Part shown: in pieces, positions 1 to 10,182 of the stretch
Numbering within the stretch: position 1 is the stretch's first letter
Layout: each line of letters starts with the position of its first letter
Made by a program: the position numbers and the translations under genes
NCBI GenBank assembly: GCA_036960485.1
Contig: JBALXS010000016.1
Coordinates: forward strand, 634-64,633
Source of the DNA: Oceanospirillaceae bacterium
Lineage (GTDB): Bacteria; Pseudomonadota; Gammaproteobacteria; Pseudomonadales; Balneatricaceae
Direction of reading: 5' to 3'
Length of the DNA: 64,000 nucleotides
Notes under the pieces: model-generated
Database searches by the model: none
What the model saw: the letters and a program-made list of their open reading frames with translations, nothing else
Told to the model about the DNA's origin: nothing

Positions 1-124
1 CGAGTACATCACCTTGACCAGGCATGATGAACACCATGTTATCGACATAATCAGTGACAAGTGCATCAAAATCACCGGCACCTATTGCATCCCAACCTCT
101 TTGTACTATTTCTGATAAGCTCAT
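1..124 (-). CDS. SnoaL/NTF2-like small protein, partial (runs off window start); probable integron cassette gene
   Basis: ATG at 124 preceded by AAGGAATTAAA. Translates MSLSEIVQRGWDAIGAGDFDALVTDYVDNMVFIMPGQGDVL, typical of an NTF2/SnoaL fold start (W-x-A-x-x-x-G-D...Y...V-F-x-M-P-G). Confidence 0.65.
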   Translation of the reverse strand, partial: MSLSEIVQRGWDAIGAGDFDALVTDYVDNMVFIMPGQGDVL

Positions 125-169
125 TTTAATTCCTTCTTTATGGTTGTGTATCATTCTTAATTTAATGTC

Positions 170-262
170 GCTGAACGCCTTACTAAGCGGCGCGAAATAG
201 TTGGCTAAAGTGTACGAAAAAGAAGTGCTAGCCTACTGTTTAGCATCCGTTGAGCCATTTGT
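170..262 (-). other. attC-like integron recombination site (interrupted)
   Basis: Plus strand reads GCTGAAC...CTAAGCGG...AAATAGTTGGCTA...TAGCCTACTGTTT...CCGTTGAG CCATTTGT. These are nested imperfect inverted repeats, with a degenerate core (GTTCAGC on minus) just upstream of the cassette gene. The expected opposite core GTTATGC is displaced to 1064-1070. Confidence 0.65.
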
Positions 263-640
263 GCACGCCAGTATAGGCATGAACTAATGAGGTGAAAGTC
301 CTCTGTAGGAGAAACGCCGTTTATTAAAGGTGCTTTTATTAAACGTTAACTACTAGTGAATGGCAAGGGCTTGGTCGTGAAATCTGATCTGGAGAAAGCG
401 GCTAGCTTCTTTGTTTTAAGCAAGGTGAGCTGATGAAAAAGTATGTATATCAGGCGTAACCTGAAGGCTAGTTGGCAATGCTGGCCTGTGAAACGTTTTG
501 GATCGAAGACGGCGAAACCGGTGATACTTTTGGCTAGAGAACACGGCTGCCGTAAAGATGGGGTTGTACAGTGAAAGTTCATGTCCATTGTTTAAATAAT
601 AGAAGGTGGGGAAGTCTGCTAAACAAGCGATCATTACTGT
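261..640 (+). mobile_element. 5' fragment (domain I region) of a group II intron, class C-like; no RT ORF or domain V/VI
   Basis: Starts GTGCACGCCAGTATAGGCATG...GAGGTGAAAGTCCTC. Contains GCAAGGG...TCTGGAGAAAGCGG and GTGAAAGTTCATGTCCATT...GGGGAAGTCTGC, which match recalled IIC domain I landmarks. Begins at a TTGT motif inside the attC, opposite to cassette orientation. Confidence 0.7.
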
Positions 641-649
641 ATGTTATTA

Positions 650-684
<35 letters not shown>

Positions 685-811
685 AGTGAGGCTCTGTTCC
701 ATAAGTGTCTTGGTTTCGAGTATCTCATCACTGGAGAGAGGGTGGTTCTCGAGTGACTTGCTTTTCGTTAACTGACTTATTTTGTAAACTTTTAAATTTT
801 AAAAGGTTTCG

Positions 812-1063
812 ACTTGGTCGAATTCATTTCTTTTGTGTGGCCAAAAGAAACCGAACCAAAGCGCTCTTTGCCATATGCGGTAACGCTAATACTGTAGATA
901 AAAAGGCTACCCACGATTACCGAAAGGCCTCTAGGCTATTTAGTAAATAGCTGCGACGCTAATCTGAAGGGCTACTTTAGCTCGCTGTCATAATTAATAC
1001 CAAGCTAGAATAAACGAAGCCCATAGTATGATGGTTGCATTGGCGAAGTAGCGTAGGCCAGCC
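812..1063. repeat. REP/MITE-like structured intergenic repeat element
   Basis: Hairpins TTCGAC-TTG-GTCGAA, TTTCTTTTG-TGTGGC-CAAAAGAAA and GCTATTTA-G-TAAATAGC (935-951). The ttcttttg..caaaagaaaccgaaccaaag end resembles recalled gammaproteobacterial intergenic repeats. Confidence 0.45.
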
Positions 1064-1072
1064 GTTATGCGC

Positions 1073-1408
1073 TTAGTATTCAGAACTTTTCCAACCTATT
1101 ATTATTCGGCCAAAAATAATGCCTACAAAACCTATGATAATATTAACAACACCTGATGCCAAATATGCAATCCCCGCGTGGCCATGATCAATACTAACAC
1201 CATAAAACTCATAAACTAGAGCAACCCATTCATAACCATATACAGAAATAAGTATAGCTACGCTAACATATACACAACTAAACCAGTTTTTTGCAGATTT
1301 ACCCTGCTGCTGATTCTGCACTACCTTTCTTCTAAAGTGATAAATCACCAGTATAAGAAGAACCACATTAAAAATAAAACTTAAAGAGTATGACAATTTA
1401 GATTTCAC
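1073..1408 (-). CDS. Hypothetical membrane protein (about 3 TM), probable gene cassette
   Basis: 111 aa ORF, GTG start, hydrophobic segments. Stop TAA is followed after 2 nt by GCATAAC (attC R''-like). A degenerate ATTATGT core lies just upstream. Confidence 0.65.
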   Translation of the reverse strand: MKSKLSYSLSFIFNVVLLILVIYHFRRKVVQNQQQGKSAKNWFSCVYVSVAILISVYGYEWVALVYEFYGVSIDHGHAGIAYLASGVVNIIIGFVGIIFGRIIIGWKSSEY

Positions 1409-1519
1409 CTAGTACACATAGACATAATGATTCTCTCGAAATGTTAGCCCAAAACTCGTAAGTCAGACTAACCCGAGCCATAATATAGATTGGAATATAG
1501 CATATGAAGGGAAATAATT

Positions 1520-1773
1520 ATGCAAAACAATAACATAATATTCATTGGGCTCGATGCTTATAAATTTCCCCTCAAATTGCTTACAGTTAGGACGCTAGTA
1601 ACGCAGGAATCTTTCATTTAGGTAATGATAAAAGTACCGAAAAAAATTGCTCATTAAGCTTGCCCGCAAACGGCAAGCAAAATACCCTAAAGTCACTTTG
1701 CACTTTATCTATAAAGAGAGTCATTGGTTCTATCTATTCTTAACCCATTTAGGTCCTTGTTGTTATGGTTTAA
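1520..1773 (+). pseudogene. IS110-family transposase remnant (N-terminal DEDD/RuvC region)
   Basis: Starts MQNNNIIFIGLDAYK after GAAGGGAA. Frameshifted pieces read TQIAY...HLG and KLARKRQAKYPKVTLHFIY...LTHLGPCCY, matching IS110 N-termini (FIGLDTHK...KLARQLQSKYPKATLHF.YEAG...LGHCCYV). Contains stops and is truncated. Confidence 0.75.
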
Positions 1774-1903
1774 ATTTATGCAGATGGGCTCAGGTGCATT
1801 CTTACAGCTAGATAGATAGAGGTCAAAGCGCTCGAAAGGGTATCAGTAAGCAGATAGGAATCCCCTGCACCCGAAGAGCTAGCGTGTGCTTCAACTAACT
1901 TTA

Positions 1904-1931
1904 AAATTCTTAGGGGTGCTCCTAAGAATTT
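1904..1931. terminator. Perfect hairpin near the probable right end of the IS110 remnant
   Basis: AAATTCTTAGG-GGTGCT-CCTAAGAATTT. Confidence 0.45.
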
Positions 1932-2083
1932 GTTACTTTTTACATAACGATCTAATAAAAAATTCTGTGTATAGATGAGAAATAGATACTGCGTAGACAG
2001 AATCAGAGGCTTTCGATATTACGCTTTCCCAAATAGAAAATTCTTTTTCAAGTTGACTCTACATAGTTAGGAATATTCTACTG

Positions 2084-2482
2084 CTACGTGTTTTTGTTGA
2101 TTTTCTTGTTATGTTTTTTGTGCCACAGCATGCATATAAATAATGCAAATATACCGCTAAGGTAAGTTGCAAGCAAAGGAATTATTGTAAGCTGATAGGC
2201 ATGTTTATAATCTTCTGGATAGTATGAATCACCCGCTAAAACCCAAGCTGTAATAGCTCCAAAAATTAACCAAACGATTGAAGCTATTTGTTTATGGCTA
2301 GGTGCTGTGGCATAACCAGATATAACTACAAAAAAAGCAGCAAAAGAACCAATCATAGGCTTTTTCCAAACGCCAATAAAATCAGCAATTAACCCTGCGC
2401 TGATTGCTGAAACCAAAAATACAATGACTACTATTACACATGATAAAGCAAAACCTCTAACTTGATTCATACTCAGACCCAT
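2084..2482 (-). CDS. Hypothetical 4-TM membrane protein, probable gene cassette (alternative start 2470)
   Basis: 132 aa hydrophobic ORF. Its 3' end runs into ACATAACAAGAAAATCAACAA, a typical attC R''/L'' start. Confidence 0.7.
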   Translation of the reverse strand: MGLSMNQVRGFALSCVIVVIVFLVSAISAGLIADFIGVWKKPMIGSFAAFFVVISGYATAPSHKQIASIVWLIFGAITAWVLAGDSYYPEDYKHAYQLTIIPLLATYLSGIFALFICMLWHKKHNKKINKNT

Positions 2483-2563
2483 TGAAAAGCATTACAGCTT
2501 AATACTGCGTATGGCTGTTTATTCGGAAAAGAAATTTCTATTTGTATGAAACTTCCCTTGGCT

Positions 2564-5853: not shown

Positions 5854-6110
5854 TGAGTAGGCTGTAAAATACTGTTCAAGTCTTAAGATTAAATTACAAC
5901 TTTTACTCAACATTAGCGCTAAATTTAAGAATAATATGCAACGAAAGTCATTTCCTGTGAAAAATGAAATGCGTCTAACTTGTGTATATTTTATTTGAAT
6001 TAGCAATGATCTGCGCTTATTTACTACTATCTGGTTAATCTATTTGCTAAACTTGTCGCCATTTTTCGCTGGGCTTATCCAGTGATATCGGATAGAAGGT
6101 TTCAAACTAC

Positions 6111-7679
6111 ATGTTCCAAATGCTTGTTTCCAAATCACAGAGTATGAAAAACGACGTGCTCTCTGGTTTAACTGTCGCTTTAGCGCTTGTTCCAGAGGCT
6201 GTAGCCTTTGCTTTTGTAGCGGGGGTAGCGCCGCTAGTTGGTCTTTATGCCGCGTTTATGGTAGGTCTAATCACAGCACTGATTGGCGGTCGGCCCGGGA
6301 TGATCTCAGGTGCTACAGGTGCATTAGCAGTAGTAATGGTGGCGCTAGTTGCCGATCACGGCGTTGAATACCTTTTTGCCACCGTTGTACTGATGGGCAT
6401 ACTGCAAGTATTAGCAGGAGTGTTCCGCTTAGGTAAGTTTATTCGTTTAGTACCCCATCCTGTGATGTTAGGTTTTGTGAATGGTTTGGCGATTGTTATC
6501 TTTTTATCACAAGTACCGATGTTGCAATCAGATACCCCTGACGGAAAATGGGGATGGATGTCTGGAACCTGGCTTAGTGATTCAGCGCTGTGGATCATGG
6601 TTGGTTTGATTGTATTAACGATGTCAATCATTCGTTTTTTACCGTTAGTGACTACTGCTGTTCCCTCTGCATTGGTAGCTATTGTCGTAGTGACTTTATT
6701 GGTGCTAGGTTTTGATCTTGAAACATTAACAGTTGTTAACTTTCTACAAGAGAAGACAGGTGATATAAACGCTACCATCGCAGCGGGCTTACCTGAGTTT
6801 CATTTCCCAATGGTGCCATTGAATATGGAAACATTGGTTATTATCTTCCCTTACGCTATTATTTTAGCGGCTATTGGTTTAATTGAATCATTATTAACCT
6901 TAACGTTGATAGATGAAATGACCAACACACGCGGACGCGGTAATAAGGAATGTATCGGTCAAGGTGTAGCTAACGTTGCAACTGGATTTTTCGGTGGCAT
7001 GGGCGGTTGTGCAATGATTGGTCAAAGTATGATCAACATTAACTCAGGTGGTCGTACTCGCGTATCAGGTGTTTCTGCTGCGTTATTTTTATTAGCCTTT
7101 ATTCTGTTTGGTTCAGCCTATATTGAAATGATCCCACTAGCGGCGTTAGTCGGCGTGATGTTCATGGTTGTGTTAGGTACCTTTGAATGGGCAAGCTTTC
7201 GTTTACTAGGGCGTATCCCACTGGGTGATACTTGTGTTGGTATAACGGTAGCAGTAGTGACGGTCTTCACTGACTTGGCAATAGCGGTAGTGGTTGGTGT
7301 TATTATGTCAGCGCTTATTTTTGCTTGGCGCCATGCTAAACACGTTGAAATGGAAACGCGATTAGAAAATGAAACCAAAGTATATTTACCACATGGGCCG
7401 TTGTTTTTTGCATCAGCGCAAAGTTTTAAAGATAACTTTACCCCGCAAAGTGATCCTAAAGATGTGATCATTGATTTTAAAGATGCACGTGTAGTTGATC
7501 ATTCGGGGATAGAGGCGATCGATGCTATTGCCGATAAATATGTTGCCGCTGGTACTGTATTGCATTTGCGTCATTTAAGTGCTGAATGTACTGCGTTGCT
7601 TGAGAAATCGGGGTCGCTAGTTGAAGCTAATGAAGATGAAGACCCTAAGTACAAAGTGGCAGATGACAGCCTAGCTTAA
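6111..7679 (+). CDS. SulP/SLC26-family anion transporter with C-terminal STAS domain
   Basis: [46 protein letters not shown]; STAS-like GPLFFAS...VIIDF. Confidence 0.93.
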
Positions 7680-8994: not shown

Positions 8995-10182
8995 ATGTCA
9001 AATTCAACACAATCAATAGTAATTGTATCAGCTGCAAGAACAGCTATCGGCGGGATGCAAGGTGTACTTAGTTCAGTAACAGCACCCAATTTAGCTTCTT
9101 TTGCCATCAAAGAGGCCGTTAGCCGCGCAAATATAGACTGTGATGATGTTGAAGAAGTAGTAATGGGATGTGTACTTGCCGGTGGATTAGGCCAAGCGCC
9201 TGCACGCCAAGCAGCATTAGGTGCTGGATTAAGTTTGGCAGCCAATTGTACCACGATTAATAAAATGTGCGGATCAGGTATGAAAGCAGTGATGTTTGCG
9301 CATGATCAGCTAAAAGCTGGCAGTGCGAGTGTCATGGTGGCTGGTGGTATGGAAAACATGAGCCAATCGCCTTATCTTTTACCTAAAGTGCGCACAGGTT
9401 TACGCATGGGGCACGGCCAAGTTTTGGATTCAATGTTCTACGATGGCTTAGAAAATGCCTATGATGGAAAATTGATGGGCGTTTTCGCACAACAAACGGC
9501 AGATGATTATGGTTTTTCTAGGAAAGCGATGGATGATTTCGCCATTCGCTCGTTAACACGAGCACAAAAAGCCATTGAAGAGCAACGTTTCGAAAGTGAA
9601 ATAGCACCTGTTACGATTAAAAGCAGAAAAGGTGACACTGTTGTTAGCCAAGATGAACAACCATTTGCGGCTAACATCGAAAAAATTCCGCATTTAAGAG
9701 CTGCTTTCAAAAAAGATGGTACCGTTACAGCAGCTAACTCTAGCTCAATTTCAGATGGTGCTGCCGCATTAGTGATGATGACAGAAAGTGAAGCCAAAGC
9801 GCGTAATTTAACCCCTATCGCGCGTATTGTTGGCCACAGTTCACATGCTCAAGAACCTGCTGAATTTACCATAGCACCTGTCAGTGCACTCCAAAAATTG
9901 TTGAAAAAAATTGCTTGGAATAGTGAAGATGTTGATCTCTATGAAATCAACGAAGCGTTTGCGGTTGTCACGATGATTGCGATGCAAGAATTGAACTTAG
10001 ATGCTCAAAAAGTAAACATAAATGGTGGTGCGTGCGCTTTGGGGCATCCAATTGGGTGCTCAGGGGCAAGAATTTTAGTCTCGCTAATATATGCTCTACA
10101 AAATCAAGGGAAGAGTAAAGGTGTTGCCTCTTTATGCATTGGTGGTGGTGAAGCAACGGCAGTCGCTATAGAGCTAATATAG
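8995..10182 (+). CDS. Acetyl-CoA C-acyltransferase (thiolase)
   Basis: INKMCGSG, NEAFA, GHPIGCSGAR and CIGGGE thiolase motifs. ATG 8995 follows a GGAG RBS; the track start at 8839 is too long. Confidence 0.95.
   Translation: MSNSTQSIVIVSAARTAIGGMQGVLSSVTAPNLASFAIKEAVSRANIDCDDVEEVVMGCVLAGGLGQAPARQAALGAGLSLAANCTTINKMCGSGMKAVMFAHDQLKAGSASVMVAGGMENMSQSPYLLPKVRTGLRMGHGQVLDSMFYDGLENAYDGKLMGVFAQQTADDYGFSRKAMDDFAIRSLTRAQKAIEEQRFESEIAPVTIKSRKGDTVVSQDEQPFAANIEKIPHLRAAFKKDGTVTAANSSSISDGAAALVMMTESEAKARNLTPIARIVGHSSHAQEPAEFTIAPVSALQKLLKKIAWNSEDVDLYEINEAFAVVTMIAMQELNLDAQKVNINGGACALGHPIGCSGARILVSLIYALQNQGKSKGVASLCIGGGEATAVAIELI

Follow-up and report, generated by a model that had tools for sequence, protein, structure and literature searches.

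Group IIC-attC introns have already been described with respect to their target, TTGT/T, their orientation opposite (antisense) to integron cassettes, their outward promoter P1out and their truncated copies (PMC3001079; PMC7923331). P1out, composed of the hexamers TTGCCA and TTTAAT with a 17-nt spacer at nt 76-104, is given in Table 3 of PMC3001079 for introns of Shewanella, Vibrio and enterobacteria, and the Sh.ba.I2 version, whose hexamers are the same, gave weak cat expression in E. coli (PMC3001079). Truncated integron introns such as UHB.F1 and H.ha.F1/F2 lie in cassette arrays or CALINs and were judged non-functional, and in bacteria fragmented introns are commoner than full-length ones (PMC7923331).

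Here we describe a locus in a 64,000-nucleotide stretch of DNA, referred to throughout as the window (positions 634-64633 of contig C111 of genome G000, forward strand), near whose start lies what we hold, with high confidence, to be the decayed 5' piece of an IIC-attC intron, placed at the TTGT|T of the attC of a cassette for a 111-aa protein, antisense to that cassette, and deprived of its 3' part. Like the introns S.ma.I2, E.c.I7, Sh.ba.I2 and those of the Kl.pn.I1/I3 type (Leon, Quiroga, Centron, Roy; PMC3001079), the fragment sits in the R'' core of an attC bottom strand, at TTGT|T, runs antisense to the cassettes, and has a P1out of the form TTGCCA-17-TTTAAT at nt 76-104; over its first 220 nt it shares ~75% nucleotide identity with the intron of blaIMP-4 plasmids. 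It departs from these introns in keeping only ~440 nt of ~1.9 kb, with no IEP/RT ORF and no domains V/VI, in its GCACG 5' splice site and internal microsatellite, and in its setting, a chromosomal array whose integrase gene is broken and lies on another contig. UHB.F1 and H.ha.F1/F2 are likewise fragmentary and likewise occur in cassette arrays or CALINs, but they are 5'-truncated with their 3' ends kept, whereas the window fragment has kept its 5' end and lost its 3' part. A classical group IIC intron on contig C256 of the same genome is of the same class, and its RT is 37% identical to a same-genus IIC-attC RT, yet it is inserted after a terminator, not in an attC, and has no blastn similarity to the window fragment. 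Against this background the fragment is an ordinary relic, one of many in the genus.

The cassette array and its interrupted attC

The first 2.5 kb of the window hold three short cassette ORFs, all on the minus strand (2-154, 1073-1408 and 2084-2482), beyond which come a lysR-type gene and then dinB. The ORF at 2-154 is the start of that of the next cassette, which in full encodes 129 aa with a SnoaL_2 domain (PF12680, E 1.9e-8) and lies downstream of P1out, while 1073-1408 encodes the 111-aa small membrane protein, for which no Pfam family was matched and whose cassette owns the broken attC. Proteins 71-77% identical to it occur in four same-genus genomes, in unrelated flanks. At the DNA level, homology with the relatives' gene is bounded at 1063/1064, at the R'' core, and at 1420; both flanks are unrelated, and the relatives' copies of the cassette keep a different downstream sequence, the attC at 170-262 not being retained. 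Such limits are the pattern expected of a shuffled cassette, though the gene's attC is not conserved with it. No integrase gene lies within the 64-kb window, and the only integron-integrase gene of the genome (C233:4528-5443) is a pseudogene, interrupted by an in-frame TGA behind ...KHPT and shifted out of frame ahead of the catalytic C-terminal region; with intI broken, the whole cassette array would be in decay anyway. Two further minus-strand ORFs, 346-588 (80 aa) and 416-634 (72 aa), fall wholly within the intron fragment and can almost certainly be dismissed as spurious.

Positions 170-262 of the plus strand are the bottom strand of a genuine attC, which constitutes the intron's 5' exon and whose R'' complement is interrupted behind its GT. 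It consists of the R' complement GCTGAAC (170-176), a 6-nt spacer (177-182), an imperfect hairpin and CCGTTGAG (L box and central stem, 183-254), the spacer CCATTT (255-260) and GT (261-262), with which the R'' complement begins. A family-level search revealed an uninterrupted attC in another genus (G134:C5:112763-112840), 90% identical to window 174-251, together with two further, more distant homologues of the half-site, and the alignment of the four sequences gives a consensus hairpin of 22 pairs, seven of which show compensatory changes. The R'/L'/L''/R'' cores are thus seen around a structure-conserved imperfect hairpin, with paired L boxes and 6-nt spacers, and with the R'' interrupted after GT. 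Where the intact site reads ...GTCCGTTTGAGTAACTTGT|TAGAG, the window reads ...ATCCGTTGAGCCATTTGT|GCACGCC (CTTGT|TAGAG against ATTTGT|GCACG at the junction itself), and since the homologue continues with TAGAG where the window switches to GCACGCC, the attC is broken exactly after TTGT (TTGT|T), at 262/263. The attC-like hairpin of the original prediction, which had been made from the letters of the DNA, is borne out by the homologue and the compensatory pairs, and the predicted insertion at the TTGT of the attC bottom strand by the comparison at 262/263.

From 263 to 744 (plus strand) extends the 5' fragment of the intron, which takes in domain I and stops, still upstream of the ORF, at about domain II/III, as delimited by blastn, alignment and the plasmid introns. 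It begins with GCACG, the family consensus being GTACG, and is ~75% identical to that consensus. Blastn against same-genus copies, which include full-length ones with RT and domain V, gives E 1e-70 and 71-77% identity over 258-635 and again over 681-738. The first 220 nt match sequences on 346 plasmids (~75% identity, E 4e-33); on NZ_CP028486 they hit the 5' end of a group II intron, annotated ltrA, that is antisense to the adjacent blaIMP-4, and Shewanella baltica OS223 is also among the matches of the ribozyme 5' region. Judged by this homology to full-length same-genus copies and to plasmid ltrA introns, 263-744 belongs to the published group IIC-attC lineage. At gathering thresholds, Rfam cmscan of the whole window yielded no match; RF02001 (group-II-D1D4-3) emerged only by an E-value search, at 371-585 (plus strand) over its full model length, with 24.9 bits (E 0.021, 2.5-kb search) against a gathering score of 32, while homologous copies score 42-136 bits with the same model. 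RF01998, which relatives carry ~150 nt further on, is absent from the window (cmscan, E<=10). That RF02001 alone in the window falls under its gathering score counts against the intron reading, for which the homology is the decisive evidence. A group II intron of IIC-attC type had been predicted here, and the alignments to same-genus and plasmid introns confirm it, the RF02001 match staying below its gathering score; with the intron sense strand plus and all cassette ORFs minus, the fragment also lies antisense to cassette transcription, as had been foreseen.

The missing 3' part of the intron

The original prediction let the fragment, with its attC, span 170-640; the intron identity stood but the end at 640 did not, as homology reaches ~744, where alignment puts the end. 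Within the intron, 643-690 represents an expanded microsatellite, where the window has 46 nt and relatives have 17 nt, and contains (AGTT)8.8 at 650-684 (plus strand; TRF score 70, 100% matches). Domain V (RF00029) gave no cmscan match at E<=10 in window 1-2500, tblastn of a same-genus RT against C111:1-2133 at E<=100 returned only noise (E 13 and 23), and the ORF list has no long ORF in 590-1070. Similarity of 740-1065 to family intron 3' ends (blastn, Smith-Waterman) did not go beyond shuffled controls, and in a blastn of a full-length copy against the whole assembly the window was matched only over its first ~370 nt. The predicted loss of the RT ORF and of domains V/VI is borne out by all of these searches, and with catalytic domain and RT missing, the fragment can neither splice nor move.

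The absence of the 3' part was thus correctly foreseen, but it is not a simple cut-off: the expected place of that part is taken by a REP/MITE-like repeat (765-965, plus strand; extent from alignment) that is dispersed throughout the genus and contains two short hairpins. This repeat (~200 nt, with hairpins TTCGAC..GTCGAA and TTCTTTTG..CAAAAGAA) matches no Rfam family, has copies on at least six other contigs (C11, C231, C149, C90, C95 and C217), and gives at least 10-20 matches per genome in nine of 11 same-genus genomes, its copy number running to tens in a genome; G006 also has it in arrays with ~300-bp spacing (C1:177740-180262). Behind it, 966-1063 is unique sequence, and a search of 190 family genomes with 960-1075 returned no homologue of meaning. 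As a candidate for the intron's own 3' end, GGCTACCCGAT, brought close by an internal deletion, GGCCAGCCGT (1056-1065) was considered and rejected, 34 of 300 shuffles scoring as well.

The most probable course of events begins with a mobile group IIC-attC intron that reverse-spliced into the single-stranded attC bottom strand of the 111-aa cassette, at the TTGT|T of the R'' core that its lineage usually targets and in the orientation opposite to the cassette genes. Subsequent decay would have turned the 5' splice site from GTACG into GCACG and expanded a tetranucleotide repeat within the copy, and everything from about intron nt 440 on, namely the tail of domains I-III, the RT/maturase ORF and domains V and VI, would have been lost, the dispersed repeat and ~100 nt of unique DNA now standing in its place. 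The attC would thereby have been left split, with ~800 nt between R'/L'/L'' (170-262) and the remainder of R'' (1066-1070). At that distance the split attC should be unable to fold into its recombinogenic form, so that the 111-aa and SnoaL-like cassettes, in effect fused, would no longer be separately excisable, a loss that would matter little because the intI of the genome is itself a pseudogene. The permanent breakage announced for this attC thus divides into a split after TTGT, which is there, and a loss of recombination, which would be its expected consequence.

One attC or two

On the far side of the gap, GTTATGC at 1064-1070 (plus strand) lies 2 nt from the stop codon of 1073-1408(-), exactly as predicted for this motif beside the neighbouring stop codon, and is the complement of R'' (GCATAAC) of the 111-aa cassette. 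The proper comparison for an R'' is with the cassette's own first bases and not with the R' of the array. Those first bases, 1422-1427, lie 14 nt upstream of the start codon, within ACATAAT (1422-1428, plus strand), a degenerate R' complement of the preceding attC that marks the start of the 111-aa cassette; the two ends of a single cassette should be complementary, and 1422-1428 is so to 1064-1070. Between GCATAAC (1070..1064) and G+TTATGT, the reverse complement of 1422-1427, six Watson-Crick pairs and one G-T pair form, and a complementarity of R'' to its cassette's own first bases of this quality has an estimated probability of chance match of ~0.03-0.06; in the neighbouring SnoaL-like cassette, TCAGC (C111:364-368) and GCTGA (170-174) match perfectly. 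The motif at 1064-1070 is, on this pairing, very probably the R'' of the 111-aa cassette.

The original prediction had gone further and taken GTTATGC for the missing end of the attC at 170-262. The R'' of the 111-aa cassette very probably lies there, as said, but an origin from the same site is only likely, given an extra GT. The candidate 3' exon is 1066-1070 (TATGC), and on balance we favour, with some reserve, its having been cut off from the attC at 170-262: a single attC is the parsimonious reading, since a cassette has one attC, 940-1075 shows no second attC-like fold and no ORF intervenes. Positions 1064-1070 carry a complete GTT, that is, an extra GT before TATGC, and a single attC must have acquired this GT by chance (1 in 16) or from a rearrangement. 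It is possible, though unlikely, that two attC sites are involved, 966-1070 being the right half of the 111-aa cassette's own attC and 170-262 with its intron deriving from another cassette, the two having been brought together when two copies of the dispersed repeat recombined or when a whole intervening cassette was deleted; GTTATGC would then not be the missing end of this attC. Two sites would account for 1064-1070 as a complete GTTRYGC with no chance GT needed, and would make sense of a multi-copy dispersed repeat, present in tens per genome, exactly between the two parts. They would also fit the non-canonical fold of the rejoined site: in the minimum-energy DNA fold of 166-262 plus 1066-1073 the R box is not closed, and the join did no better than 14% of random 8-mers. 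The rejoined 170-262 plus 1066-1070, expected in the original prediction to behave as an attC, failed to do so in this fold, a weak test because it is the next cassette that supplies the final six bases of R', which need not match R''. A second attC would, however, have to reside in sequence that bears no mark of one, as 940-1075 has neither an attC-like hairpin nor a stability signal on either strand relative to shuffles (z 1.0 and 0.1), the 190 family genomes offer no homologue of 960-1075 that would mark it as attC sequence, and 263-1063 contains neither an ORF nor a second attC; parsimony, with one attC per cassette, speaks against it as well.

Other copies and the outward promoter

A second copy lies on the same contig just upstream of the window, where C111:20-354 is 77% identical to window 258-589, and RF02001 scores 42.1 bits, above threshold, at C111:134-350. 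This sister copy, beginning at C111:25 after ...GCTTTGT|, is a better preserved 5' fragment of only ~340-360 nt, followed by CTACCCAAC|TCAGC. TCAGC completes the R'' complement and matches the start of the SnoaL cassette (window 170-176) perfectly, and the CTACCC of the copy resembles the intron 3' terminus GGCTACCCGAT (1 of 300 shuffles scores as well); the copy within C111:1-400 may be an internal-deletion derivative that has kept both ends. Further copies, 72-92% identical to that of the window, lie on C96, C79 and C245, and the 5' copies of this genome share the start TTGT|GTACGCCCAG(C/T)ATGGGCATGAACTAATGAGGTGAAAGTCC. In all, the assembly (94% complete, 264 contigs) contains five 5' pieces and one 3' piece of the IIC-attC lineage but no full-length donor. 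The 3' piece, C63:1260-1483 (minus strand), comprises the RT C-terminus and domains V/VI and is 81% identical to nt 1700-1927 of a full-length copy in G010. The only complete group II intron of the genome, C256:6017-8230 (minus strand; 424-aa RT frame, domain V 47.1 bits), sits just after a rho-independent terminator (GGGCTTTTTTGT|TTGCC) and was rejected as a donor on account of that site and of its blastn dissimilarity to the window fragment.

Two complete same-genus genomes, G010 and G005, have many copies, and four of those in G010 are full-length, all carrying an RVT_1 ORF and a domain V (RF00029). Their architecture runs from the attC bottom strand ...TTGT|GTACGCCCAGCATGGGCATGAACTAATGAGG through the RVT_1 ORF and RF00029 domain V to GGCTACCCGAT|TAGAC, with junctions TTGT|GTACG ... 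CCCGAT|TAGAC and TATAT or TAGGC as the 3' exon of other copies; in the copies of G010, the bases of the 3' exon make whole an R'' complement, and this pairs with the R' complement upstream. ORF-less derivatives of ~550-930 nt with both ends kept are also present in G010 (L033:2757-4520 and 5944-6875; L034:7443-8000 and 8999-9850), as well as in G005 and G003; they share deletion breakpoints (~nt 1432 or 1640) and the same ~46-nt insertion in the 5' strand of domain V. The occurrence of several such copies per genome suggests a non-autonomous sublineage that has spread despite its altered domain V. In another family, a compact ORF-less IIC-attC intron of ~757 nt lies in an attC (G040:C53:30911-31668, minus strand, L037), with RF02001 (111.8 bits), RF01998 and RF00029 (50.4 bits) all above threshold.

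Multiple copies raise the question of whether the truncation is real, or whether a short-read contig was misjoined across repeated intron and REP copies. Such a misjoin might be entertained for an assembly in 264 contigs in which both the intron and the dispersed repeat are multi-copy and two other intron copies (C79 and C245) lie at contig ends, but we consider it very improbable: identity between the window copy and the others of the genome is no higher than 72-92% (77% to the adjacent one on C111), its private mutations, the GCACG start and the microsatellite, would keep reads from being confused, it lies inside a 64.8-kb contig, and the complete, single-contig relatives G010 and G005 hold the same kinds of fragment.

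Within the fragment, a P1out-type promoter recognised by sequence match occupies 338-366 on the minus strand (intron nt 76-104), with a -35 TTGCCA (366-361), a 17-nt spacer and a -10 TTTAAT (343-338), equal in hexamers, spacing and position to those of Table 3 of PMC3001079. It is directed toward the attC and the SnoaL-like cassette ORF. A sigma-70 scan missed it because the scan requires A at position 2 of the -10 hexamer. P1out may still transcribe the SnoaL-like cassette, since it is identical to the promoters of other IIC-attC introns, including that of Sh.ba.I2, which has been tested.

Selection might accordingly be imagined to hold the 5' end, the first 100-odd nt being kept as a P1out module for the SnoaL-like cassette, in an array far from or without its Pc promoter, while the rest decays. 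Both hexamers and the 17-nt spacing are intact at the published position, and the P1out of Sh.ba.I2 is active in E. coli, if weakly (PMC3001079); the promoter stretch is identical to the family consensus at 27 of 29 positions, whereas the remainder of the first 225 nt reaches 75% (binomial p ~0.013), and all four 5' copies of this genome have an intact -10 hexamer. Yet the same stretch is already the most conserved part of live copies (column identity 0.986 vs 0.911), and would have been conserved from the outset, the sister copy at C111:25-363 shows no excess (23/29 vs 80%), and the complete genomes G010 and G005, in which an excess of 5'-only fragments was looked for, have none, 5'-only and 3'-only fragments being about equal in number (4 vs 4 and 3 vs 4, respectively). 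Selective retention as a promoter module is a minority reading that we regard as improbable. We likewise give little credence to the broader proposal that, in a chromosomal array with a dead integrase and a distant or absent Pc, P1out stumps, here the 263-744 fragment and C111:25-363, are exapted promoter cassettes that transcribe individual cassettes, in this instance the SnoaL-like gene.

As a decayed IIC-attC intron, the fragment accounts for an 800-nt non-coding gap in the cassette array, flags the two minus-strand ORFs within ribozyme sequence as spurious, and, through the split that it entails, explains why attC finders will miss the site at 170-262. It adds one data point to a picture in which the chromosomal integrons of marine Gammaproteobacteria abound in IIC-attC introns, most of them decayed and all of the lineage known from clinical blaIMP-4 arrays, and the P1out that it retains offers a cheap way to ask whether intron stumps act as cassette promoters.
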